The position numbers and the translations under genes were made by a program. A stretch of 64,000 bases of DNA. Source: a phage. The notes beneath the pieces were generated by a model that was given only the letters and a program-made list of their open reading frames with translations, was not told the DNA's origin and searched no databases. Each line of letters opens with the position of its first letter. The first letter of the stretch is position 1. This document shows, piece after piece, positions 51 through 56,805 of the stretch. The stretch is taken from assembly GCA_014685065.1 (NCBI GenBank), contig GCA_014685065.1_3930.1, one strand, 5' to 3'.

Positions 51-2195
51 TTACATAGAGACTCTATCACGAATCTCAGCGATTTTTGCATCGTTCATTC
101 GGGATTCACCTTTAATCTTAGTCCATCCAAGATACCCACACACCCTGTTAATCACAGAGATATCATGTGAATGGCAAACCTCACATTCTTCAACATCAGC
201 CTTTGGTCTGTTACCACAATGTTCACAGATTGCTAAGTCAAAGTTAAGTCCCTGATAAAAACCTTTCAACATCCCTCTTGTAATACAACTTTTAAGTGCT
301 GTTAAGTTTTCTGGGTTAGCTACCCTTACATACTGGATTCTGCCACCTCTACAGATATGGAAGAATGGCTCTTCTAAGTCCTGCTTCTCAAATGGTGAGA
401 TGTCTGCTGCAACATTCATATGGAAACTGTTTGTAAAGTATTCCTTGTCAGAGACACCTTTAATAACGCCAAACATATCTCTGAACTGTTTTAGCTGAGT
501 TCCACAAAGTGATTCTGCTGGAGTGCCATATACCGCATACAGGAAACCATCTTCGTTCTTAAACTCTTCAGTTTTCATGTTAATGTATGCCAGAACATCG
601 TATGCAAAACTATAGCTTCCAACTTCATGAAGTCGTTTACCTTCAGCAAGAACAGACAGCTCATCAAGAGCAGTAACCCCAAAAGAAGCTGTGAAGGATT
701 TCACAATATCCCAACCAACCCTGTCAGTAGGTTTCTTATTCCCTTTGTACAGACCACCCTGTGTGAATGCAAGAGGGTTAGAACTTGCTGGCATATTAGC
801 AATCATTTCGTAACGTTTCTTGTGGAAGCTGCGAATCATCTCTAGGTACTTATCAAGCTCTTTCCAGAAGTCTAAACCATTCTCTTTAGAATACTGGTAA
901 ATCATTGGTAAGTTCAAAGATACAGCACCAATGTTAGCACGACCAACGTAGAACTCTTCTCCTTCCTCATTAAGATATGGAGACAAGAAAGCTCTGCAAC
1001 CCATCGGTGAAATAACCTTACCAGAACGCTCAAAAGCCTCTGCTACAGCACCATGACCAGATACACTTAAGAAGTCTGGATACATTGCTTTAGAGCAACA
1101 CTCAATAGCTTTACTGTACAGGTGGCCTTGACAGATATTCTCATCGTGTCTCTTCTGGTCATAAATATAAACCAGTTTAGGGAATACAACAGGCTTCTTG
1201 CTCTTACCTTGTCCATTCATACGAACATCTAGGAGAGTACTTGCAATCATGTATTGCAGTCGGTTATCTTCATTGGACATATCTGAGTCAAGTAACCCGA
1301 ATGTCAAAGTTGTGAATGCAAAATCCCCACGACTACAAGGTACAGTGTTTAGTTTCATTTCAAGTGACTGGAAACCCTGAGTCAGTTCAATCTGTAGCTG
1401 CTCCATGACATAATTGTGGTAATGTTCTTTAGGAATACCATAAGATGCTGCTTTCTCAGCATGATAGTGTAGAGACTTCTTAGCATACGGTACAAGTACC
1501 TTATCAATCTCTGCTAAAGTAAAGCCACCAAATTGCTGTGCAGTTGCTGAAAGAACTACATCACCAATAACCTGTAAGGCTGACAGTACAGACTTCGGTT
1601 CACAATATTCGATGCCAGACATTTCAAAGCCACCTTTCAGGACTTTACCAATGTCAAACAGGCAACAGTTGATACCACCAAAAATTAGGTCTCTTAAATC
1701 ATGGATGTAGATAAACCCTTTTTCAATGGCTTCAAGTTCCTCTGGTGTTAAATGGTACTGTTTAAAGATTTCTTTAGTCAGATAACCACGAATAATTGAA
1801 CCTTTTGTAGAAATTAAACTGCTGTCAAAATTAGCGTTTTCTCGGTCACCTAAGAAGAGTGTATCTTTAGTCTTCTGGTAGAGTTCATCCCAATTTTGAG
1901 CAACCTCTTTACGGTAATTTCTATATGTTGAGTAAGACTCATAAATCTCGTGATTGACTTCTGCCAAAGCACCCTCAACAATACTGTGAATATCATTTAC
2001 CGAAATTAGCAAATTATTCTGCTTAGTGGACTTTACCAGAATCCTCATAAATGCTGACTCAAGAGCTTGAGTAACATCTGGTGGAAGCTCTTTATAACCA
2101 ACTCTGTTAGCTGACTTTGTGACTGCTGCTAAAACTTTTTTGATATCAGGTTCCTCAAGTGAGCCATTCTTTTTAATAATCTGTACTTTGTTCAT
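51..2195 (-). CDS. nrdD: anaerobic ribonucleoside-triphosphate reductase (class III RNR)
   Basis: 714 aa; N-terminal ATP-cone-like region, C-terminal glycyl-radical motif RVCGYLG preceded by a Cys cluster (CEHC...CEVC). Confidence 0.9.
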   Translation of the reverse strand: MNKVQIIKKNGSLEEPDIKKVLAAVTKSANRVGYKELPPDVTQALESAFMRILVKSTKQNNLLISVNDIHSIVEGALAEVNHEIYESYSTYRNYRKEVAQNWDELYQKTKDTLFLGDRENANFDSSLISTKGSIIRGYLTKEIFKQYHLTPEELEAIEKGFIYIHDLRDLIFGGINCCLFDIGKVLKGGFEMSGIEYCEPKSVLSALQVIGDVVLSATAQQFGGFTLAEIDKVLVPYAKKSLHYHAEKAASYGIPKEHYHNYVMEQLQIELTQGFQSLEMKLNTVPCSRGDFAFTTLTFGLLDSDMSNEDNRLQYMIASTLLDVRMNGQGKSKKPVVFPKLVYIYDQKRHDENICQGHLYSKAIECCSKAMYPDFLSVSGHGAVAEAFERSGKVISPMGCRAFLSPYLNEEGEEFYVGRANIGAVSLNLPMIYQYSKENGLDFWKELDKYLEMIRSFHKKRYEMIANMPASSNPLAFTQGGLYKGNKKPTDRVGWDIVKSFTASFGVTALDELSVLAEGKRLHEVGSYSFAYDVLAYINMKTEEFKNEDGFLYAVYGTPAESLCGTQLKQFRDMFGVIKGVSDKEYFTNSFHMNVAADISPFEKQDLEEPFFHICRGGRIQYVRVANPENLTALKSCITRGMLKGFYQGLNFDLAICEHCGNRPKADVEECEVCHSHDISVINRVCGYLGWTKIKGESRMNDAKIAEIRDRVSM

Positions 2196-2219
2196 TATTG
2201 CCCCTTTACATGCTAAAAA

Positions 2220-49309: not shown

Positions 49310-49510
49310 TTATTCAGAGTCTGTAGCAGTCTCTTCTTTCTTAACTTCGAATTTAGCATCAACAGCATCAAGAAGTGCATCCATAGATGCCTCTTTAATA
49401 TCAATACCTGTTGCTACAGATAATCTGTCTGCAATTGCCATGATAGTGTTCTGCATAAATTCCAGCTTTTTGTTAGCTTCATAAAGTTCTTTATAAACGG
49501 TCTCGCTCAT
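49310..49510 (-). CDS. hypothetical small protein upstream of terminase
   Basis: 66 aa; too small for a typical small terminase, function unknown. Confidence 0.35.
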   Translation of the reverse strand: MSETVYKELYEANKKLEFMQNTIMAIADRLSVATGIDIKEASMDALLDAVDAKFEVKKEETATDSE

Positions 49511-49634
49511 TATGTTTTCTCCAAATAATTAACCATGTTTCCCCTTAAAAAAGACGGCACAGAGACCGTCAAGGAGAAACCACAATGTACGTCAGAGACA
49601 TACTGTATAAGTCTTCCTATAAAGTATAACTCTG

Positions 49635-49694
49635 TAAAAAAGCCCTGTCTAAAAATACTCTTCGGTAGCGAAAGGAAGAATACTTATAGCAGGG
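49635..49694 (-). terminator. compound hairpin + T-run, candidate terminator of the tRNA operon
   Basis: GCCCTG (49641-46) / CAGGGC (49689-94) with a nested TCTTC/GAAGA stem; on the minus strand followed by TTTTTT (A6 at 49635-40). Confidence 0.4.
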
Positions 49695-49732
49695 CATTAT
49701 TATTATTTTAATTGAGAGAGAGTAAAATAACT

Positions 49733-49808
49733 TGGAGAATCCGAAGGGACTCGAACCCTTATAAACCTGTTTTGCAGACAGGCACATAGCCATTTCTGTC
49801 ACGGATTC
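49733..49808 (-). tRNA. tRNA-Cys (anticodon GCA)
   Basis: Hand fold: acceptor GAATCCG/CGGATTC, T-arm GGGTTCGAGTCCC, anticodon loop CTGCAAA, CCA encoded. Confidence 0.6.
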
Positions 49809-49812
49809 AAAT

Positions 49813-49905
49813 TGGAGGAAGATACCAGACTTGAACTGGTACACCGATTTCTCAGCTACTGGCAGTTTAGCAAACTGCTCCCTTACCTTTTAGGGTTAAT
49901 CTTCC
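49813..49905 (-). tRNA. tRNA-Ser (anticodon GCT), class II
   Basis: 93 nt; acceptor GGAAGAT/ATCTTCC, anticodon stem GCAGT/ACTGC with loop TTGCTAA, long variable arm. Confidence 0.55.
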
Positions 49906-49906
49906 A

Positions 49907-50641
49907 TTATTTCTGTAATGCGTTCTTCATTTCTGGTGTTGCAATAGTGTCAATTACACCAGTTTTACAGGCATCATCAAACCAGTCTGGTAAGATACCT
50001 GCTAAGAACCCATTGATATTCGTTTTAAGGTACTCTGCAATAAGGGCAGCTTCTTCTTCAATCATCTGCACAACTTCATCTGCATAAGCTGTAATCTTTG
50101 AGATACCTTCATTAATCTTACTGACAGCTTGGTTAGCTAAATCAGAAACAGTATCAAGACCCTTGTCAATAGCGTCTTGTAAGTCACTTAATACATCGTT
50201 AACACTCTCTAGTGTACTGTTAATCGTATCAATAGCTTTTTGACCATATTCTGTAGCAACACCCATAATACCACTGAACGGTGTACAACCAACTTGTTCT
50301 CCTGCTGCACCCATAACATTGGAATATCCATTTGCTACCTGCATACGTGATGAAAACTCATCAATAGATTTTTGACCGTAGTCTGTCAGGGTCTTAGTAG
50401 TTGCTGTAGTGCTTGTAAGGCTTGTTGTAAAGCTGTTTAGAAGGACTGTTGTAAGTCCAGCAGCAACAAGTTTCTCCTGCATTGTAGGGTCTGTTACAGA
50501 ACTAATAGAGCTTACAAGTGATGTAGAAGCAGCTACGGTTCCACCGAGAACTGCTGCACCAGTAATAAGTGGGTTAGAAAACCCTTTACCGGTTTTTAAG
50601 AGATTAAAAATCTCCTTACCTTGTTCTGTCATCTCTTTCAT
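49907..50641 (-). CDS. hypothetical Ser/Thr/Ala-rich protein embedded in the tRNA array
   Basis: Track ORF trimmed to an internal ATG so it does not overlap the tRNA at 50660-50734; about 244 aa. Confidence 0.4.
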   Translation of the reverse strand: MKEMTEQGKEIFNLLKTGKGFSNPLITGAAVLGGTVAASTSLVSSISSVTDPTMQEKLVAAGLTTVLLNSFTTSLTSTTATTKTLTDYGQKSIDEFSSRMQVANGYSNVMGAAGEQVGCTPFSGIMGVATEYGQKAIDTINSTLESVNDVLSDLQDAIDKGLDTVSDLANQAVSKINEGISKITAYADEVVQMIEEEAALIAEYLKTNINGFLAGILPDWFDDACKTGVIDTIATPEMKNALQK

Positions 50642-50659
50642 TAAGCACCTTTGAAATTG

Positions 50660-50734
50660 GTAGTCCAGTGGGATTTGAACCCTCTTCTCATGTTTTTCAG
50701 ACACGCGCTTTAACCATATAAGCTACTTGGACTA
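50660..50734 (-). tRNA. tRNA-Phe (anticodon GAA)
   Basis: Acceptor TAGTCCA/TGGACTA, T-loop TTCAAAT, anticodon stem CGTGT/ACATG with loop CTGAAAA. Confidence 0.5.
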
Positions 50735-50739
50735 TAAAT

Positions 50740-50815
50740 TGGGGTGACCTACGGGATTTGAACCCGTATAGACCATGTTCACAGCATGGGTCATTGCCAT
50801 TTATGATAAGGCCAC
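50740..50815 (-). tRNA. tRNA-His (anticodon GTG)
   Basis: Anticodon stem CCATG/CATGG, loop CTGTGAA; T-arm ACGGGTTCAAATCCCGT. Confidence 0.6.
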
Positions 50816-50846
50816 ATTTAAGGACTCTCGTAAGAACCCTTAGAAG

Positions 50847-50922
50847 TGGCAGCGGCATAAGGATTTGAACCTTAATAGGACAGCTTCAGAGACTGTTGCA
50901 TTGCCAGTTATGCTATACCGCT
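50847..50922 (-). tRNA. tRNA-Gln (anticodon CTG)
   Basis: D-stem GCAT/ATGC, anticodon loop CTCTGAA, T-arm TAAGGTTCAAATCCTTA. Confidence 0.55.
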
Positions 50923-50927
50923 AAATT

Positions 50928-51006
50928 TGGTACTCCATATCGGATTCGAACCGATACATAACACAGATTTTAAGTCTGGCCTCTCTGCCAATTGGAGTAA
51001 TGGAGC
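50928..51006 (-). tRNA. tRNA with Leu anticodon TAA but short variable arm (class I-like)
   Basis: Acceptor GCTCCAT/ATGGAGT, discriminator A, D-loop AATTGGCA, anticodon loop CTTAAAA, T-arm ATCGGTTCGAATCCGAT; aligns with the tRNAs at 51751 and 52329. Confidence 0.45.
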
Positions 51007-51008
51007 AT

Positions 51009-51084
51009 TGGCGGGGGATGTTGGAATTGAACCAACTTCTTCGATTTCAAAGACCGAGGTTTTAACCTTGTAAACTAATCCCCT
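51009..51084 (-). tRNA. tRNA-Gln (anticodon TTG)
   Basis: Anticodon stem TCGGT/ATCGA, loop CTTTGAA; T-arm GTTGGTTCAATTCCAAC. Confidence 0.55.
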
Positions 51085-51092
51085 TTAAATCT

Positions 51093-51650
51093 TTACTTTC
51101 TCAGTGGATGAATAAAGAATGCCAACATAACTCTTTCCCTTGAGAATGCTCTTTCTTCTGGGACAACACTTTTTAGTTTCCATCCAATATAAATTCTCCA
51201 GTAAAACTGTTTACCAAAGACTTTAATTGATGGGATAAAAGCGAATAATCCCCAAGCATTACTGTTCCACATTAGGAGATAACCTGTCTGATTATCTTCA
51301 GGGTCAGAACTTACGTTGATATTACCTTTCCACTTAGTAACATCTTTTACATCTCTTCCTAATACATGGTAAGAGAAGTTATAAGCTTTGTTTCTCCAGA
51401 GCCATCCGACTCTCTGCATGTAGACACCCAGCTTACCAATCTTTCTAATCTTAGCCCATCGTTCGATATGACCTTCGTCACCATCAATTGGATTGTCATA
51501 TGTCTCCATCCATCTAAATCCGAAAGGTAAGTGGCCTTTCTTCTCACTGTAAAATGGAACTACGAAAGGTGCTAAGATAACTGCTAAGGTTGCTGCTAAT
51601 GGTTCTAGCAAAGCTAGGAAAATCCATGAAGCATATTTTAAATATCTCAT
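51093..51650 (-). CDS. hypothetical membrane protein embedded in the tRNA array
   Basis: 185 aa; N-terminal TM segment (WIFLALLEPLAATLAVILAPFVV), Trp-rich body. Confidence 0.5.
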   Translation of the reverse strand: MRYLKYASWIFLALLEPLAATLAVILAPFVVPFYSEKKGHLPFGFRWMETYDNPIDGDEGHIERWAKIRKIGKLGVYMQRVGWLWRNKAYNFSYHVLGRDVKDVTKWKGNINVSSDPEDNQTGYLLMWNSNAWGLFAFIPSIKVFGKQFYWRIYIGWKLKSVVPEERAFSRERVMLAFFIHPLRK

Positions 51651-51669
51651 CTAAATAGCCTCTTTAAAT

Positions 51670-51745
51670 TGGCGCAGGATAAGGGATTCGAACCCCTATT
51701 AACAGCTTCGTAGACTGTTGCTCTATCCATTTGAACTAATCCTGC
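51670..51745 (-). tRNA. tRNA-Arg (anticodon ACG)
   Basis: D-arm GTTC...GAGC, anticodon stem ACAGT/GCTGT with loop CTACGAA. Confidence 0.55.
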
Positions 51746-51750
51746 AAAAT

Positions 51751-51828
51751 TGGTGTTCCAAGACGGATTCGAACCGTCACTAGTACAAGGTTTGAGCTTG
51801 CATCCTCTGCCAATTGGGATACTGGAAC
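51751..51828 (-). tRNA. tRNA with Leu anticodon CAA but short variable arm (class I-like)
   Basis: Acceptor GTTCCAG/TTGGAAC, discriminator A, D-loop AATTGGCA, anticodon stem GCAAG/CTTGT with loop CTCAAAC. Confidence 0.45.
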
Positions 51829-51829
51829 A

Positions 51830-51904
51830 TGGTACTCACTAAAGGACTTGAACCTTTTTCTTCATCTTGTAAGGGTGGTGTTTTACCATATAAACTAAGC
51901 GAGT
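51830..51904 (-). tRNA. tRNA-Val (anticodon TAC), tentative
   Basis: Good acceptor, D-arm (GTTT/AAAC) and T-arm (AAAGGTTCAAGTCCTTT); anticodon stem is weak, loop read as CTTACAA. Confidence 0.4.
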
Positions 51905-51910
51905 ATGAAA

Positions 51911-51992
51911 GAGGTCTGAAGTTGTGCCGCTAACTCAACTCCGTGGAATTTGTTACGGTCTTCAGTTGACACCAGCGGTCTTTCACTTGACC
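51911..51992. other. tRNA-sized structured element without canonical T-loop
   Basis: Terminal inverted repeat GAGGTC / GACCTC about 80 nt apart with internal hairpins (CCGT...ACGG); no GTTCRA motif on either strand. Confidence 0.35.
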
Positions 51993-51999
51993 TCTGAAT

Positions 52000-52076
52000 T
52001 GGTGCTGCTCACAGGACTCGAACCTGCATTTCCATCCTTACAAGGGATGTGTAATAGCCAATTATACGAAAGCAGC
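52000..52076 (-). tRNA. tRNA-Thr (anticodon TGT)
   Basis: Perfect anticodon stem CATCC/GGATG, loop CTTGTAA. Confidence 0.6.
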
Positions 52077-52082
52077 ATTGTT

Positions 52083-52157
52083 TGGAGCATCCAGAGGGAA
52101 TCGAACCCTCAACCTCAGTTTGGAAGACTGTAATTTTCCCGTTTAAACTATGGATGC
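52083..52157 (-). tRNA. tRNA-Gly (anticodon TCC)
   Basis: Acceptor GCATCCA/TGGATGC, anticodon loop CTTCCAA, T-arm GAGGGTTCGATTCCCTC. Confidence 0.55.
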
Positions 52158-52163
52158 ACTAAT

Positions 52164-52240
52164 TGGTGGAGAAGCAGGGAATTGAACCCTGTACTTAAGT
52201 TTGCAAAACTTATGTTTTAACCATGTAAACTACATCCCCA
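52164..52240 (-). tRNA. tRNA-Ala (anticodon TGC)
   Basis: D-stem GTTT/AAAC, anticodon stem TAAGT/ACTTA with loop TTTGCAA. Confidence 0.6.
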
Positions 52241-52245
52241 ATGTT

Positions 52246-52321
52246 TGGTACAGGTGGAGGGAATTGAACCCATCGTCTTACTGATTAAGAGTCAGCCGCA
52301 TAACCATTTTGCTACACCTGC
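52246..52321 (-). tRNA. tRNA-Lys (anticodon CTT)
   Basis: Anticodon loop CTCTTAA; paralogous in sequence to the Lys(TTT) tRNA at 53966. Confidence 0.5.
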
Positions 52322-52328
52322 ATTAATT

Positions 52329-52405
52329 TGGTACACCTAGAGAGATTCGAACTCACACTGAGCAGATTCTAAGTCTGCTGCCTCTACCAATTGGGCTATA
52401 GGTGC
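52329..52405 (-). tRNA. tRNA with Leu anticodon TAG but short variable arm (class I-like)
   Basis: Acceptor GCACCTA/TAGGTGT, discriminator A, D-loop AATTGGTA, perfect anticodon stem GCAGA/TCTGC with loop CTTAGAA, variable region only about 5 nt. Confidence 0.5.
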
Positions 52406-52663
52406 ATTAAATCTTTTTAGAGAACTTCTAAGAACCTAAGCAACAAGGTTCCACAACAAGCTGTAATAACCTTAGAAGCCCTCTAAAAAGACCTAATTTG
52501 GTCTTTGCATAGTCTTGTTTAATCCGGTGACTAGAACCTTTGGAGAGCTTGATATTATCTCTTCTCCGTGACACCTACTAGGTGCTTTACTGTGCGTGTA
52601 CGACAATACACGAGGGATACCAAAGCAACATCCGAATGAAGCTTGGCTTTAAATCTTATTAGG
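52406..52663 (-). ncRNA. structured non-coding spacer within the tRNA array (candidate small stable RNA)
   Basis: No ORF and no tRNA; several hairpins (CTTCTAAG...CTTAGAAG 8 bp; AGACC-taattt-GGTCT; CGTGTA-cgacaa-TACACG). Confidence 0.3.
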
Positions 52664-52751
52664 CGGTAAGTAAAGGAGTCGAACCCTCACCGTATCTCTA
52701 CAGTGGCAACTGTTTTCAAGACAGTTTGGCTACCATTAGCCGCTACCTACC
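52664..52751 (-). tRNA. tRNA-Ser (anticodon TGA), class II
   Basis: 88 nt; perfect anticodon stem ACTGT/ACAGT with loop CTTGAAA; long variable arm; CCA not encoded. Confidence 0.55.
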
Positions 52752-52764
52752 CCTAATAAGACTT

Positions 52765-52847
52765 TGGCATGGGACGGAGGAGTTGAACCACTTTGAAACG
52801 GTTTTGGAGGCCGTTGCTCATGCCTTAGAGTCTTAACATCGTCCCAC
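52765..52847 (-). tRNA. tRNA-Trp (anticodon CCA), atypical
   Basis: 83 nt; acceptor GTGGGAC/GTCCCAT, anticodon region ACGGC-CTCCAAA-ACCGT; T-stem imperfect. Confidence 0.4.
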
Positions 52848-52989
52848 ACTATAATTCGAAGCTTACCGTATTTTCACAACACTGTAAAGCCCCTTCTCAG
52901 ATTATTTACATGTTCTGGAAAACATGAGATACAGACCACCTCCTTACACGGAGACCCGATAAGGTCGTCTAAGCAATCTGCTAACTATT

Positions 52990-53066
52990 TGGCACACCCT
53001 ACAGGATTCGAACCTGTAACTAACGATTTAGAAGACCGTTGCTCTATCCAATTGAACTAAGGGTGC
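52990..53066 (-). tRNA. tRNA-Arg (anticodon TCT)
   Basis: Anticodon stem ACGGT/ATCGT, loop CTTCTAA; T-arm ACAGGTTCGAATCCTGT. Confidence 0.55.
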
Positions 53067-53313
53067 ATTAATCTTTAAAGACTCTCTTAGAAAGCCCTTA
53101 AAGATGCCCACCTTATTAATCATACCGTGGGCGAGTACGCCAAATTCTTTGATGAGGGATTGGAAGACCTCACTGGTGTTTAGCCTATCAAGCTACTGCC
53201 AGAAAAACATTGTCGTTTGCATTTATTTTAAATTTGCAAAATAGACGCTACGCAACGAAAACTAAGGTTACTATAAAGTGGTCACATCTCAATGTCAACA
53301 ACTTTATTGAAAT

Positions 53314-53389
53314 TGGTACTGTGAGAAGGATTCGAACCTTCTGCCTTTCGGTTATCAGCCGAATGCACATCCATATGTGCTTTCACAGC
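53314..53389 (-). tRNA. tRNA-Ile (anticodon GAT)
   Basis: Perfect anticodon stem TTCGG/CCGAA, loop CTGATAA. Confidence 0.6.
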
Positions 53390-53868
53390 ATTGTTACCCC
53401 TTCGTGTACCTCTCTGTGGCAATTTGCACACAGTAATACACACTTATCAACTTCAGACTTCATTACCTCTATAGAGAAGTGTTTTTGTCCTACTGTGAAG
53501 TCCTTTGTATTAGGGTCTAAGTGGTGAAACTCTAAAGCCTTTATGCACTTATTGTATCCACAAATTGAGCAACAACCACCTTTGTAATCAACTAAAACCC
53601 TCTTAAGTTTGTCACGAGACTTTTTAACGTGTTGTGACTTCGCTTTCTTTTCTTCATCGGGGTTTTTGTATTGTTTCAGAATACCATTTGAAATACATTC
53701 ATCACAATACTTTCTTGATTTTGGTGTTTGTTTTCCACATGAATGACAAGAGCCTTCTTGTCTTCTTTTTGGATGACTCTTGTTGTTTACCCTTGCAGCA
53801 CAAGAGCGTGAACAATATTTTCCGCCTTTAACGGCTTTGTTGTCACAATCTTTATTAGCACAAAACAT
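53383..53868 (-). CDS. HNH homing endonuclease
   Basis: Trimmed to ATG 53866-53868 (RBS GGTGA) so it does not overlap tRNAs; Cys-rich N-terminal region; C-terminal HNH motif EFHHLDPNTKD...CANCHREVH. Confidence 0.7.
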   Translation of the reverse strand: MFCANKDCDNKAVKGGKYCSRSCAARVNNKSHPKRRQEGSCHSCGKQTPKSRKYCDECISNGILKQYKNPDEEKKAKSQHVKKSRDKLKRVLVDYKGGCCSICGYNKCIKALEFHHLDPNTKDFTVGQKHFSIEVMKSEVDKCVLLCANCHREVHEGVTML

Positions 53869-53884
53869 AATATCACCAACGAAT

Positions 53885-53961
53885 TGGAGGTTCAGATGGG
53901 AATCGAACCCACATTCATAGGGCTTATGAGACCCCTGCATTACCTTATCTGCGACTGAACC
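53885..53961 (-). tRNA. tRNA-Met (anticodon CAT)
   Basis: Acceptor GGTTCAG/CTGAACC perfect; anticodon stem GGGGT/GCCCT, loop CTCATAA. Confidence 0.55.
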
Positions 53962-53965
53962 ATAT

Positions 53966-54041
53966 TGGTAGAAGTGGAGGGATTCGAACCCATCGCCTGT
54001 CAGATTAAAAGTCTGCCGCATCACCATTCTGCTACACTTCC
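53966..54041 (-). tRNA. tRNA-Lys (anticodon TTT)
   Basis: Anticodon loop CTTTTAA; T-arm ATGGGTTCGAATCCCTC. Confidence 0.5.
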
Positions 54042-54045
54042 ATTA

Positions 54046-54181
54046 AAATTATCTTTGTAGATAAGCTATCCAGACTTGCTTAAGGTCTGTAGCGATGTGC
54101 CTTGTTGGGTTTAAATCTAGAATTTACCCTTTCACTCTTTGTGGTCGCATACTCACAGGTAAGCTTAATAACTTATCTACA
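54046..54181. repeat. 19-bp perfect inverted repeat flanking a ~98-nt spacer
   Basis: aattatctttgtagataag (54046-54064) is the exact reverse complement of cttatctacaaagataatt (54163-54181); inner CAGAC...GTCTG hairpin. Confidence 0.55.
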
Positions 54182-54241
54182 AAGATAATTACCAGACCGT
54201 TGTTTATCATCTTAAGTGCTACCATTACACCAACTCGACAT

Positions 54242-54266
54242 CTGCCGAGTGAAGGAATCGAACCTT
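54242..54266 (-). other. tRNA 3'-half-like fragment (T-arm plus acceptor 3' strand only)
   Basis: Canonical GAAGGTTCGATTCCTTC T-arm followed by ACTCGGC-A, but no complementary 5' acceptor strand found within 120 nt. Confidence 0.3.
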
Positions 54267-54497
54267 CGCCTTTTCTTTACCGGAGAAATAGATTGTTTAA
54301 GTTTTGCTGTAAACGGTCTTCTGTAAATTTGTTGAGCCAGACCAAGTTTTAAATTTTCAAAATTAAATTGGCTTGAAATTTCATACATTCTTGCTGTATT
54401 TGGTCTTCTGCTCCTTTAAAGAATACTCGTAAGAACCCTTTAAGGGAGGGGCTAAATAGCCCTCTCAAAACATCATCTTGAAATACTTATTATAATT

Positions 54498-54574
54498 TGG
54501 CGGTTACGAAGGGATTTGAACCCTCATCATCTCCCGTGACAGGGGAGTATTTTAACCAGTTAAACTACATAACC
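54498..54574 (-). tRNA. tRNA-Asp (anticodon GTC)
   Basis: Perfect anticodon stem CTCCC/GGGAG, loop CTGTCAC; D-stem GTTT/AAAT. Confidence 0.6.
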
Positions 54575-54580
54575 TTTATT

Positions 54581-54668
54581 TGGTGTGCCGTGTAGGAGTC
54601 GAACCTACCGAGTCTCAATGACAAGGGATTTACAGTCCCCACCGCTACCATCTACGGGATAACGACAC
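54581..54668 (-). tRNA. tRNA-Tyr (anticodon GTA), class II
   Basis: 88 nt; anticodon stem GGGGA/TCCCT, loop CTGTAAA; long variable arm. Confidence 0.5.
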
Positions 54669-54737
54669 ATTTAATTTCTATTCAGGCTAAGGACTTGCAC
54701 CTTACAAATCGGTGAGCAATCGCTTCTCTCCTAAATT

Positions 54738-54814
54738 TGGCGGTTAGTCAGGGATTCGAACCCTGTGCCATTCGCTTAACAGGCGACCGCACATACCTTA
54801 TGTGCTTCCTAACC
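54738..54814 (-). tRNA. tRNA-Asn (anticodon GTT)
   Basis: Anticodon loop CTGTTAA; T-arm CAGGGTTCGAATCCCTG. Confidence 0.5.
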
Positions 54815-54891
54815 TTAATACATTGCCAGACCGTGTTTTTTCTTTTATCCGCAAAAAGTATTTTGTTGCTGAATACGGTCTTCTGCAAAAT

Positions 54892-54968
54892 TGGAGGCGG
54901 GTGCAGGAGTCGAACCTGCCGATACCATGCTAATGAGACATGTGAGACGCCCTTTCTCTATACCCGCA
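54892..54968 (-). tRNA. tRNA with anticodon CAT (Met or Ile2), tentative
   Basis: Anticodon stem CATGT/GCATG, loop CTCATTA (position 37 is T, unusual); 1-72 mismatch in acceptor. Confidence 0.4.
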
Positions 54969-55059
54969 ATTCTTAATGACCAGACCAAATCTCTTCTTTG
55001 TCCGATTTACCTTCAGATGAATAAGATTAAGTTTGCTGTAATTGGTCTTCTGTCAAAAC

Positions 55060-55137
55060 TGGCGTTCCAGAAGGGATTTGAACCCTCAAATATCCACTTT
55101 GAAAGAGTGGTGACTTTACCATTTTGTCTACTGGAAC
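55060..55137 (-). tRNA. tRNA-Glu (anticodon TTC)
   Basis: Perfect acceptor GTTCCAG/CTGGAAC and anticodon stem CCACT/AGTGG, loop CTTTCAA. Confidence 0.6.
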
Positions 55138-55144
55138 ATTAATT

Positions 55145-55224
55145 TGGTCTCCGTTGAAGGATTTGAACCCTCGACCCCTTGCTCCCAAAGCAAGTGCTGC
55201 TAAACCAAACTGAGCTAAACGGAG
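55145..55224 (-). tRNA. tRNA-Pro (anticodon TGG)
   Basis: Perfect acceptor CTCCGTT/AACGGAG and anticodon stem CTTGC/GCAAG, loop TTTGGGA with G37. Confidence 0.6.
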
Positions 55225-55342
55225 ATAAACTTTTCAAACTCTATGTAACCACTTTAACATTATTTTTTAGTGGTTGTCAAGAACTTTTTTAAAATATTTT
55301 TCAGTATCTTAGAAAAGCTCTCATTTCGTTTCTATGTAGAAC

Positions 55343-55371
55343 ATATTAAAGGGTATCAAACACATTGTCAA
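55343..55371 (-). promoter_or_regulatory. sigma70-like promoter reading into the tRNA array
   Basis: On the minus strand: TTGACA - 17 nt - TAATAT; lies inside a GGGTAT...ATACCC hairpin just downstream of the vWA gene stop. Confidence 0.55.
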
Positions 55372-55389
55372 TACCCTTTTTAAAACTTT

Positions 55390-56805
55390 TTACCAGATGT
55401 AACGGTCAATCATTACTGCTTTGAGCATTACGCTGATTGGGTCAAACTTCTCACCACCAAGCAGAGCTTTTAAAGTGGCTGGAGAGAACCCTGATACCAT
55501 TGCTACACCATTATCCTTAACAGATACTTCGCAAGTACCATTACGGTTTGCTAAGTACCAGAATACCAGTTGTGGCATTTTGTATCCAGCTTTTTTGTAC
55601 TTACTACGAATCGCTTCAAAGTTTGTACGACCATTAGCTCCATCAACCTGATTGAACTCCATATCAGAGAAGATAATAAGCTTACTTGGCATATCTTTCT
55701 GAGTCAAGTTGTTTCTCTTACCTGTTTCAAGAATGCGGTCAAAAGCTGCTTGTAAGTTAGTTGAGCCATATTCAACGTGTCGCATCACCTGACGATGACG
55801 GTTTCGTAAATCACCACTCAGTTCGATGAAGTGAGGGTTTGTCGAATAAACCATCAACTCATTCTTAAAGCAACCTGTATTGCGTTCTGCTACATACAAG
55901 GCAAGTGATACACCAATATCCAGAGCAGTAATGGAGCCAAAATTCACCCAAGACATTGAACTTGATACATCAGACATACACAAGATGTTTTCACCTTCTG
56001 CCATCCAGTTTGGTAGTGCTTTCCACTGCTCATTAGCAACATCTGCATTACCATACTTGACAGATTTAATCACATCGTATGGGTAAACAGCACCAGCGTT
56101 AATCTTAGTCTCACCTTTTGATAAGGACTCGATGTAAGCTTTGTAACGCTCTCCATCTTTACGGTTAAACAGTTTTTGGTAACGTGCAGCAGCAAGTGAA
56201 GGAATCTTACTGTAGTCAATCTTACCAAACTCATTAGCAGAGATTTTTTGCTCAACTGTATCAGATAGTGCAGACAACAGTGTGCGATACTCTTTCTCAC
56301 TCAAGTTTGCAAACTTGCAGAAACGTTTTACAAACTGTTTGTGACGTGGTTTTACTCGTGGTAACCACTTAGCTGCTAAACCTGCTGTTGCAGGGTCTAG
56401 TAAAGCTGCTTCTAAATGTTTGAAGGCATCTGTCTCGAAACGAGTACCTACAAAGATTTTGAAGTCATCAAAGCGACCAAGCTCTGCAATCTTATCCATA
56501 ATGCGAAGAACCTGCGTAGGCTCTAAAACTTTATCTTCAATCGCTTGAAGTAAAACAGTTCGGAAAGCTTTACGCTCACCCATACCTTCTCGTACATCTC
56601 GCATATGCAGTAAAATACGAACTGCAACATCAACATCCTCATGCAAAGCTTTGTAGAACAAGTCTGGTAAGATTTCTACATTGCTACGGCTGGAACCAGC
56701 AGCTTTGTAAAAGTCCACAAGAGCAGACATTGATGAAGTATGGTTTACAGCACCATTTTCAGTTCGACCTGCATGAAGGTGCGCATGTTTAAATAATTCG
56801 CTCAT
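55390..56805 (-). CDS. von Willebrand factor A (vWA) domain protein, possibly Ro60/TROVE-like
   Basis: 471 aa; C-terminal region has a MIDAS-like DxSxS motif (MSDVSSSMS) and later LIIFSDMEF; N-terminal half is helical. Adjacent to the tRNA array. Confidence 0.5.
   Translation of the reverse strand: MSELFKHAHLHAGRTENGAVNHTSSMSALVDFYKAAGSSRSNVEILPDLFYKALHEDVDVAVRILLHMRDVREGMGERKAFRTVLLQAIEDKVLEPTQVLRIMDKIAELGRFDDFKIFVGTRFETDAFKHLEAALLDPATAGLAAKWLPRVKPRHKQFVKRFCKFANLSEKEYRTLLSALSDTVEQKISANEFGKIDYSKIPSLAAARYQKLFNRKDGERYKAYIESLSKGETKINAGAVYPYDVIKSVKYGNADVANEQWKALPNWMAEGENILCMSDVSSSMSWVNFGSITALDIGVSLALYVAERNTGCFKNELMVYSTNPHFIELSGDLRNRHRQVMRHVEYGSTNLQAAFDRILETGKRNNLTQKDMPSKLIIFSDMEFNQVDGANGRTNFEAIRSKYKKAGYKMPQLVFWYLANRNGTCEVSVKDNGVAMVSGFSPATLKALLGGEKFDPISVMLKAVMIDRYIW

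Follow-up and report, generated by a model that had tools for sequence, protein, structure and literature searches.

Transfer-messenger RNA (tmRNA) and SmpB constitute the universal bacterial system for ribosome rescue and protein tagging. The ssrA tag is read in two parts: ClpX recognizes its C-terminal LAA, and SspB recognizes AANDxxY. In an exhaustive survey published in 2014, mycobacteriophages were the only members of the phage set to carry ssrA; beyond its own set, the survey pointed to Bacillus phage G and mycobacteriophage DS6A (PMC4131195). The 2025 tmRNA database includes tRNA-like-domain-only forms, among them that of DS6A, a tmRNA inhibitor; it rejects truncations and describes no template-half-only form (PMC11915505). 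Here, we analyzed a 64,000-nucleotide (nt) stretch of phage DNA (assembly GCA_014685065.1, contig GCA_014685065.1_3930.1; hereafter the window), and found that the third of three spacers within its tRNA gene array very probably encodes a functional tmRNA-derived RNA, which we call the spacer-3 RNA. It joins the tag-encoding template half of a tmRNA to a 5' arm with complementarity to host tmRNA, a combination that appears to be new among the phage-borne relatives described, which are complete tmRNAs or the form with only a tRNA-like domain.

Close parallels are the plastid forms that lack a coding sequence and DS6A, whose phage-borne tmRNA half is reported to inhibit endogenous tmRNA (PMC4131195, PMC11915505). 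DS6A keeps the tRNA-like domain without the tag, whereas the spacer-3 RNA is the reciprocal form, with a tag and without a tRNA-like domain. Our favored explanation is that the spacers are functional RNA segments of polycistronic tRNA transcripts made by the phage and that the spacer-3 RNA anneals to host tmRNA, where it blocks or replaces the tag template; we assign this reading a probability of about 0.45.

The spacer-3 RNA shares with tmRNA (SsrA, RF00023) a resume context of the form UAnnn followed by GCA AAC GA, a start-less, stop-ended tag open reading frame (ORF) with a 10-codon ssrA-like tag, AND(E/D/N)x(F/Y/V)L(A/M)(A/V)A, a helix-5-like hairpin whose loop holds the stop codons, and H-type pseudoknots directly 3' of it. 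In the window, the tag ORF reads GCA AAC GAC AAU GUU UUU CUG GCA GUA GCU UGA UAG, encoding ANDNVFLAVA followed by two stops, and no in-frame start codon lies upstream. We examined the frame in 132 matches of an exact gapped pattern. The 10-codon tag is kept in 131 of them, the exception being a bacterial metagenome-assembled genome without such a tag (L136); a three-member cluster among the 10-codon matches (L058) is a genuine one-piece tmRNA. In every phage-derived instance, the 10-codon frame is closed by a stop.

Tags such as ANDDVVLMAA, ANDNVFLAVA, ANEEMYLAVA and ANDEQFLAVA exemplify 13 peptide variants of the form AN(D/E)x..L(A/M/I)(A/V)A, which are encoded by 40 nucleotide variants, each stop-terminated. 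Across these 40 distinct versions, entropy by codon position is 0.41, 0.40 and 0.85, so that variation is concentrated at third positions, and all four codons are in use for the terminal Ala. The other two frames are interrupted by stops at differing places. Moreover, Kolesnikvirus, which was not retrieved by the pattern, carries GCA AAU GAU GCU CAA UUU CUG GCA GUG GCG UAA UAG (ANDAQFLAVA). The five commonest tag peptides have no occurrence in the searchable literature.

The secondary structure of the spacer-3 RNA is maintained by compensatory changes, as evaluated in an alignment (A2) of 77 sequences with RNAalifold and explicit pair counts. Helix 5 (A2 columns 111-114 with 137-140) is 100% paired, with G-C replaced by A-U in 25 sequences. 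Stem 1 of pseudoknot A, its first hairpin, is 99.7% paired, with two pairs altered on both sides in 27 sequences, and stem 2, formed by the loop with UUGG, is 100% paired, with 22 and 3 double changes; pseudoknot A covaries again in Kolesnikvirus. Stem 1 of pseudoknot B (CGCACU with GGUGUG in the family alignment) is 99.8% paired with 12 and 15 double changes, and stem 2, around the conserved loop GUGUGAUUAAUAA, occurs in five unrelated sequence versions. Overall, 93.6% of cells are paired compared with 33-45% in slid controls, and the covariation score was reached by 0/500 shuffles. Additionally, Kolesnikvirus, which lay outside the set used to build the alignment, satisfies all helices with new sequences and further compensatory changes. 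A helix AGUUU/AAACU in the 5' region was rejected, being only 72% paired in an unreliable alignment register. A closing stem in the non-Felix versions (5' AGUGCUCUUUCC with 3' GGUAAGAGCAUU) was also rejected: its covariation reflects separate hairpins with variable loops that flank the element (L041).

These compensatory changes are unexpected in coding DNA and bear on whether the spacers hold small protein genes on either strand, an explanation that we regard as highly improbable. ORFs of 37-48 amino acids exist, and RPN213 ORF019-021 and FelixO1 ORF46 are annotated here. However, the ORF antisense to the tmRNA-like element shifts frame and gains stops between lineages, indels of 1-3 nt disrupt the ORFs of spacers 1 and 2 in relatives, and tblastn found no homing-endonuclease remnants.

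A sigma-70-type promoter precedes the RNA; it matches the consensus at 11 of 12 positions and is the best site within 49500-55500. The predicted transcript starts near 53263 and begins with AGUUUUCG. Separate -35/-10 pairs, which end 7-9 nt ahead of AGUUUUCG, are present in five or more further phage lineages. Because a promoter directly precedes AGUUUUCG in six lineages, in independent sequence contexts, the RNA would start at this motif. We infer that its 3' end results from RNase P cleavage at +1 of tRNA-Arg (53066): the terminal hairpin has no U-tract and is thus not an intrinsic terminator, and therefore the 3' end would come from RNase P. The hairpin is probably a protective 3' end after this cleavage, and a hairpin of the same type also follows the Kolesnikvirus tmRNA-like RNA. 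The element is present in a single copy in the window (nhmmer, 53275-53103, E 2e-42). Two Felixounaviruses, HY02 and EC6, match the window without a difference over 53100-53262.

Two further features of this transcription unit were observed. In FelixO1 and some others, a 90-base-pair (bp) insertion separates the promoter from the RNA start. The terminal hairpin has paralogues, forming a hairpin family UUUAAGGGyUyUUAnGAGAGUCyUUAAA at 50817-50841, 53074-53098 and 54416-54440; two copies lie directly 5' of a tRNA (tRNA-His and tRNA-Arg), and the third lies in the spacer between tRNA-Asp and tRNA-Lys. The family possibly provides processing or 3'-protection signals.

Blastn with the spacers gave unexpected matches to unrelated phages at window positions 53105-53230, and in a dedicated search 656 phage records proved to carry a spacer-3 homologue; they represent three or more classified virus lineages. 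Carriers within Ounavirinae include Felixounavirus, Mooglevirus, Kolesnikvirus and phage SUSP2. Others belong to Ackermannviridae (Kuttervirus), to Schitoviridae (IME11, and FSL SP-076, which we take to be a member by our own assignment), to Klebsiella phages of 156-167 kb, and to Klebsiella, E. coli and Salmonella phages of 45-50 kb, which are unclassified where the record was checked. The homologues are confined to phages of Enterobacterales. The exact gapped pattern occurs in at least 120 IMG/VR contigs and in 3 of 185,579 species-representative bacterial genomes. One subtype is present in 209 of 5426 complete E. coli genomes (about 4%), where it is not annotated by PGAP; in E. coli O26:H11 11368 it lies in the 1-kb stretch that separates antiterminator Q from the holin in a lambdoid prophage (L144 3198-4271). 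This late-operon leader is packed with unannotated structured RNA modules. The retrieved instances represent 34 different flanking contexts and are always co-oriented with neighboring tRNA genes. In nearly all of 60 sampled records the homologue is unannotated at the match, and Felixounavirus and Kuttervirus genome announcements report zero tmRNAs.

This distribution also bears on whether the spacers provide only cis signals, that is, a promoter, punctuation for RNase P, E or III and 3' protective hairpins, with the tmRNA-like part being a decaying ssrA relic. We consider this quite improbable. In its favor, hairpins lie directly against tRNA-Leu and tRNA-Arg on the 5' side, the spacer-3 RNA is not followed by a terminator, and the spacers serve as landing zones for homing endonuclease genes in relatives. 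However, a relic would not preserve the tag frame, four compensated helices and a conserved arm across 34 flanking contexts; conservation spans Ounavirinae, Ackermannviridae, Schitoviridae, the 45-50-kb phages and lambdoid prophages; and the element is not the 3' end of ssrA, the part that integrating elements duplicate. An ssrA attachment-site relic was rejected separately: the element corresponds to the middle of tmRNA and not to its 3' end, it is located in lytic phages, and it is unlike E. coli ssrA past the first tag codons.

The 5' domain of the family matches the reverse complement of E. coli ssrA nt 67-106 in a minus-strand nhmmer profile search, with E-values that are rough for duplexes this short; the profile also matches ssrA in sense at the tag, as expected. 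At the extreme 5' end (53263-53253), an 11-bp seed pairs AGUUUUCGUUG with CGACGAAAACU through ten Watson-Crick pairs and one U.G. In every lineage tested, the best duplex predicted by RNAduplex falls on one common tmRNA site, which comprises the 3' part of pseudoknot PK1, the A-rich single-stranded linker, the resume codon and tag codons 1-6; across lineages its upper end lies at nt 105-109 and its lower end at nt 54-79. The 60-nt 5' domains of 11 lineages outside Ounavirinae reach -40 to -51 kcal/mol (z -3.1 to -5.5, 0/40 shuffles), and the Kolesnikvirus arm reaches -28.7 kcal/mol (z -3.7). For the window arm, the duplex at tmRNA 76-106 amounts to -26.0 kcal/mol, compared with -13.4 kcal/mol for its own tag region. 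Trimmed 5' arms give -26 to -35 kcal/mol with host tmRNA vs -13 to -23 kcal/mol with their own tag region, and arm duplexes with an unrelated marine tmRNA give -21 to -30 kcal/mol.

Conservation is higher at the columns with predicted pairing to tmRNA (entropy 0.29 vs 0.65), and the length-variable spacer of the arm coincides with a predicted internal loop. In full-length cofolding, the heteroduplex is retained in 8/8 lineages with a net gain of -3.7 to -16.6 kcal/mol. Moreover, the phage tags deviate from ANDENYALAA exactly at the codons (GAA AAC UA) complemented by the invariant AGUUUUCG, and this deviation would prevent self-annealing. Across the lineages tested, the arm is conserved in its complementarity to one accessible host tmRNA site, and this exceeds chance, self-pairing and the foreign-tmRNA control, but the window arm has a z of only -1.5. 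Spacers 1 and 2 were unconvincing as tmRNA antisense, with z -2.35 in the variable part of spacer 1 and -0.6 in spacer 2. In its own promoter and its extreme-5' seed complementary to a single-stranded region of a host RNA, the spacer-3 RNA resembles antisense small RNAs with 5' seeds. It differs in its target, tmRNA instead of an mRNA, in its 3' end, proposed here to be made by RNase P instead of a terminator, and in its second, template-like module.

We propose the following model. The spacer-3 RNA would be made from its own sigma-70 promoter and freed at its 3' end by RNase P as it cuts tRNA-Arg. The 5' arm would anneal to host tmRNA and mask the host tag template, and the annealing would tether the phage template to the host alanyl-tRNA-like domain and SmpB. 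Rescued ribosomes would resume on ANDNVFLAVA rather than ANDENYALAA, or rescue would simply be blocked. That the RNA acts on host trans-translation is probable. That the phage tag is decoded by a template swap, a replacement of the host tag template in trans, is a more tentative possibility: stalled ribosomes would still be rescued by alanyl-tmRNA-SmpB, and the appended peptide would end in LAVA or LMAA, not ALAA. Three features favor decoding: U(-5) and A(-4) are retained, the start-less frame is intact, and the peptides follow an ssrA-like pattern. As a speculation, the phage tags retain the SspB-like part and alter the ClpX part, and the fate of tagged proteins could change.

The same complementarity would suit an RNA that only inhibits, as antisense or decoy, by masking the tmRNA template or titrating S1, the SmpB tail or RNase R, its tag never being decoded. 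Such an RNA would be the functional counterpart of the DS6A tRNA-like-domain-only tmRNA. We consider this restricted role unlikely. It agrees with the complementarity to tmRNA nt 72-106 in all lineages and with the missing tRNA-like domain in cis, and DS6A provides a precedent for phage inhibition of tmRNA (PMC4131195; PMC11915505). However, it leaves unexplained why 40/40 variants keep a start-less 10-codon frame, a stop and an ssrA-like pattern, and why U(-5) and A(-4) are retained; the overlap with RNA structure accounts for part of this constraint at most.

Several points weigh against annealing to tmRNA with masking or replacement of its template. All arm comparisons used a single host target, E. 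coli K-12 ssrA. The window arm duplex is not significant by energy alone (z -1.5, 6/60 shuffles), discriminates weakly from the unrelated tmRNA (-26.0 vs -22.4 kcal/mol), and shows a net gain of only -4.9 kcal/mol in the cofold. The lineages are homologous, and their agreement on the target site is therefore not independent evidence. For longer versions of the arm, pairing must open part of host PK1. Since no intrinsic terminator follows the spacer-3 RNA, the promoter may mainly serve the downstream tRNAs. The retrieval pattern fixed the first three tag codons, and the tag-frame statistics come mainly from loci retrieved in this way; RNA structure also constrains the tag, because codons 7-10 overlap helix 5. 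Finally, we know of no precedent for a trans-acting replacement of a translation template, and to our knowledge nobody has demonstrated the loading of a tethered foreign template in trans-translation.

As to its identity, the spacer-3 RNA lacks the tRNA-like domain that defines the tmRNA family, and its template half reads as clearly homologous. Rfam tmRNA models support the assignment weakly but consistently: in the window, RF00023 scores 15.9 bits (53067-53256, E 0.0014) and RF04321 scores 20.3 bits against a gathering score of 47, and the best homologue on RF04321, that of IME11, scores 33.1 bits. Between the promoter (53270) and tRNA-Arg (53066), no tRNA-like domain (acceptor stem, T arm, CCA) occurs in cis. 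In tmRNA mode, ARAGORN made no call in the window and a single one among the 139 sequences scanned. A missed complete tmRNA was rejected on these ARAGORN and Rfam results; the single call, a permuted tmRNA in L012, is a mosaic that couples part of tRNA-Lys to an unrelated T arm lying 570 nt upstream. Compared with tmRNA, the spacer-3 RNA has no acceptor stem, T arm, CCA, helix 2 or PK1, and has two pseudoknots after the tag instead of three. It is about 200 nt long, carries an extra 5' arm antisense to tmRNA, falls below the Rfam and ARAGORN thresholds, and is phage-encoded with its own promoter, in tRNA clusters or a prophage late leader.

With the coding piece of two-piece tmRNAs (RF01849-51, RF04321), the spacer-3 RNA has in common a tag template on an RNA without its own CCA end, and with RF04321 a near-identical consensus around the resume codon (UAAAUGCAAACGAUAAC). 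However, a true coding piece has the acceptor 5' strand at its beginning and is excised, together with the acceptor piece, from a common precursor, whereas the 5' end of the spacer-3 RNA is the antisense arm and no cognate acceptor piece is demonstrable; a search for a complementary acceptor 3' strand found none. We hold it improbable that the spacer-3 RNA is the coding half of a phage split tmRNA whose acceptor is supplied by a separate phage tRNA-like RNA paired with it. Candidates for such a partner are a permuted cloverleaf at 54319-54194, with a closed acceptor hairpin in three fully covarying versions; a 175-nt Kolesnikvirus piece directly upstream of the element promoter, which starts with GGGUGAUUCUG and ends in a T arm and AUCACUC-G-CCA; and, in other phages, long tRNA-like RNAs that end in ACCA and lie 200-600 nt downstream. 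However, the G3.U70 alanine identity pair is absent from all candidate modules, the window module has no CCA and its acceptor is closed by a tetraloop, conserved intermolecular pairing of the modules with the element was not found, and the Kolesnikvirus piece is Rfam-negative for tmRNA and tRNA, with a fold z of -0.8. Phage tRNA regions are in any case rich in degenerate tRNA-like sequences. The idea of GGGUGAUUCUG serving as a general partner motif was rejected, the motif being confined to Kolesnikvirus, and pairing of the element 5' arm with the permuted tRNA-like module was not conserved.

These tRNA-like modules were also observed in their own right. On the minus strand at 54194-54319, the circularly permuted cloverleaf is closed by the stem AGACCGUU/AACGGUCU and comprises an additional hairpin, T and D arms, and a tetraloop-closed acceptor hairpin, ACUCGGC-AGAU-GUCGAGU; among the three acceptor versions in relatives, one has GCCA in the loop (L010, L012). 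The element shares its topology with the unprocessed permuted tRNA-like domain of tmRNA, but not G3.U70. Four paralogous modules CAGAAGACCnnUUACAGCAA ... nnGGUCUGG, which make up a direct-repeat family, lie at 54304-54331, 54391-54418, 54866-54893 and 55033-55060; each forms a stem around a variable insert, and one encloses the permuted tRNA-like element. The 175-nt piece is found in Erwinia phage Tian (L141 2288-2461; identical in L142, L008 and L016), where its start GGGUGAUUCUG may be compared with GGGGCUGAUUCUGG of tmRNA. Its fold, made up of acceptor stem, long helix and T arm, resembles the tRNA-like domain of tmRNA but contains G2.U71 in place of G3.U70.

In lambdoid and other 45-50-kb phages, covarying hairpins (GGUAAGAGCAUU, variable loop, AGUGCUCUUUCC) flank the tmRNA-like RNA. 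Downstream in the same phages lie tRNA-like RNAs, 125-140 nt long, in which the acceptor stem GUUGUGG/CCACAAC accompanies a D arm, an expanded center and either a T arm or kissing loops (L055 +200..+330, L043 +330..+470, L029 +215..+350 and +470..+610, and L024/L026/L030). CCA follows the discriminator in L043, L041 and L030, and ARAGORN calls none of them. In IME11 (L023, about 2150-2215, minus strand), a tRNA-Cys(GCA)-like sequence with no D arm, a T arm and an ACCA end is located about 330 nt downstream of the tmRNA-like RNA, within a 2-kb unannotated gap.

The coordinates of the features are collected in Table 1; descriptions run 5' to 3' on the minus strand. The window belongs to a Felixounavirus, a FelixO1-like myovirus, and its region 52300-53400 matches 279 phage records at 80-99% identity, with Escherichia phages at the top. 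ARAGORN finds 26 tRNA genes between 49733 and 55224, all on the minus strand, and besides tRNAs no Rfam family reaches its gathering score in the window.

Table 1. Features of the tRNA array around the three spacers, in minus-strand order.
Feature	Position	Strand	Details
tRNA-Ile	53389-53314	-	
Sigma-70-type promoter	53270..53298	-	TTGACA 53298-53293, 17 nt, TATAGT 53275-53270
Spacer-3 RNA, ~197 nt, predicted tmRNA-derived, without tRNA-like domain	53067..53263	-	z -4.64
5' arm, 29 nt, AGUUUUCGUUGCGUAGCGUCUAUUUUGCA	53235..53263	-	complementary to E. coli tmRNA nt 76-106
Resume context AUAAAU and tag ORF ANDNVFLAVA, two stops	53185..53226	-	read from sequence
Helix-5-like hairpin CUGG...CCAG, two stop codons in loop	53173..53202	-	covariation
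Pseudoknot A	53140..53172	-	hairpin UGAGG/CCUCA 53172-53153; loop CCAA 53163-53160 pairs UUGG 53143-53140
Pseudoknot B, stem 1	53106..53139	-	CGUACU 53139-53134 with GGUAUG 53126-53121
Pseudoknot B, stem 2	53106..53139	-	GCCCAC 53132-53127 with GUGGGC 53111-53106, enclosing loop GUAUGAUUAAUAA
Terminal hairpin, 35 nt	53071..53105	-	inverted repeat; 4 nt (UAAU) from tRNA-Arg +1
tRNA-Arg(tct)	53066-52990	-	
Spacer 2	52850..52989	-	hairpins 52969-52953, 52926-52909; motif UAAGGAGGUGGUC 52946-52934
tRNA-Trp(CCA)-like element, 83 nt	52765..52847	-	read from sequence; Rfam tRNA-Sec model 21 bits, E 0.66
tRNA-Ser(tga)	52751-52662	-	
Spacer 1	52406..52661	-	hairpin 52649-52619, core 52588-52500, long hairpin 52494-52409
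tRNA-Leu(tag)	52405-52329	-	

A sequence-only reading of this region had named the three spacers as non-coding and hairpin-rich, and had likened them to the small stable RNAs of T4. Its three coordinate ranges are correct. Neither ARAGORN nor Rfam detects a cloverleaf inside 52406-52661, 52850-52989 or 53067-53313, and the Rfam scan that it had suggested returned no family at threshold inside the spacers. The longest ORF there has 48 amino acids, and the annotated hypothetical ORFs are broken by indels or stops in relatives. The richness in hairpins exceeds chance: against dinucleotide shuffles, the minimum free energy gives z -3.30 for spacer 1 (1/200 shuffles as good), z -2.26 for spacer 2 (5/200) and z -4.64 for the transcribed part of spacer 3 (0/200).

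All three spacers are under selection. Between Felixounavirus and Mooglevirus Sf14, spacers 1, 2 and 3 are 87%, 88% and 91% identical, compared with 63% at third codon positions of the neighboring vWFA gene, the neutral baseline, and 95-97% for tRNA-Arg, tRNA-Ser and tRNA-Leu. Conservation and covariation in relatives, proposed earlier as a check, bear out the expectation: the spacers are constrained, and the helices and pseudoknots of spacer 3 pair through compensatory changes across unrelated phage families. T4 species 1 and 2 (rnaC, rnaD), which are presumably matured by tRNA processing enzymes, resemble the spacers in being non-tRNA RNAs within a phage tRNA cluster. The analogy holds in part. 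All three spacers are conserved above the neutral baseline and structured, and for spacer 3 the evidence of an RNA gene is clear; in sequence, on the other hand, T4-like phages resemble the region at tRNA-Arg only. Sequence similarity to the T4 stable RNAs was accordingly rejected, since blastn at 65-70% sensitivity matches T4-like phages only at that gene. For the spacers as a group, we infer the label "stable RNA" from sequence features. Spacer 3 appears to have a more specific identity than a stable RNA, being tmRNA-derived with a tag frame and an anti-tmRNA arm.

Spacer 1 has homologues only in Felixounavirus and Mooglevirus-type phages, and neither spacer 1 nor spacer 2 has homologues beyond Ounavirinae (blastn, nhmmer). 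In spacer 1, the hairpin after tRNA-Ser is variable in sequence and occurs in three versions. The core of about 90 nt, with small hairpins, differs by 2-4 changes between genera while its flanks diverge. The long hairpin, which ends 3 nt ahead of tRNA-Leu +1, stays paired despite a 12-nt deletion at its apex, by way of one compensatory and several wobble changes. The core of spacer 2 is present in Kolesnikvirus (nhmmer E 5e-4), where the second hairpin is wholly different (CCUGAC/GUCAGG). Kolesnikvirus also keeps the motif UAAGGAGGUGGUC, which contains the sole AAGGAGGTG of the 64-kb window, and no conserved ORF lies behind it. We take UAAGGAGGUGGUC to be a 13-nt complement, with one G.U pair, of the 16S rRNA 3' end (GAUCACCUCCUUA); spacer 2 would expose or sequester this motif. 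Spacers 1 and 2 would be selected, structured RNA segments or leaders, freed by tRNA processing from the same precursors.

The sequence-only reading had implicitly placed a tRNA at 52765-52847, and a tRNA-like sequence is indeed there, with a CUCCAAA anticodon loop bearing CCA, a good anticodon arm, an acceptor stem of 7 bp and G73-CCA at its end. The D arm deviates from the norm, and in the window a U.U mismatch interrupts the T stem. ARAGORN and Rfam miss this Trp-like element because of the aberrant D arm and the weakened T stem, and it is likewise missed in skuden. It is 71% similar to tRNA-Arg over 42 nt. In VpaE1_ev78, a canonical 71-nt tRNA-Trp and an adjacent homing endonuclease(-like) gene replace it.

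Endonuclease genes recur in this region. At 53386-53868, on the minus strand, an intact 161-amino-acid HNH homing endonuclease, 82% identical to FelixO1 ORF44, is an insertion that separates tRNA-Met from tRNA-Ile, two genes that adjoin each other in skuden and Sf14. A quick global alignment gives only 65% identity between the tRNA-Ile beside it and the Sf14 allele, compared with 95-97% for other tRNAs, which suggests an allele replacement linked to the endonuclease. Relatives (L139, L140, L003) carry endonuclease genes in or near 52988-53104 and 52764-52847, with swapped tRNA alleles; these include two insertions in VpaE1_ev78, FelixO1 ORF45, and a 150-amino-acid gene of pSJ21 directly 5' of tRNA-Leu. 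Decayed homing endonucleases within the spacers were rejected, as tblastn with five endonuclease or neighbor proteins from relatives matches only the intact HNH ORF (53868-53386).

At minimum, these homologues allow a new, widespread family of structured phage RNAs to be defined and included in annotation pipelines. It occurs, almost always without annotation, in 656 phage genomes, including the genera Felixounavirus and Kuttervirus, which are used in typing and therapy, and is present through prophages in about 4% of complete E. coli genomes. If the favored reading is true, many enterobacterial phages would tamper with ribosome rescue, reprogramming or disabling the fate of proteins from stalled ribosomes. 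This would be relevant to abortive-infection toxins that give rise to non-stop mRNAs, to the stability of phage proteins and to tmRNA as a target for antibiotics. If the template swap is true, it would be common to Felixounavirus, Kuttervirus, N4-like phages, the 45-50-kb phages of Klebsiella, E. coli and Salmonella, and lambdoid prophages of Enterobacterales.

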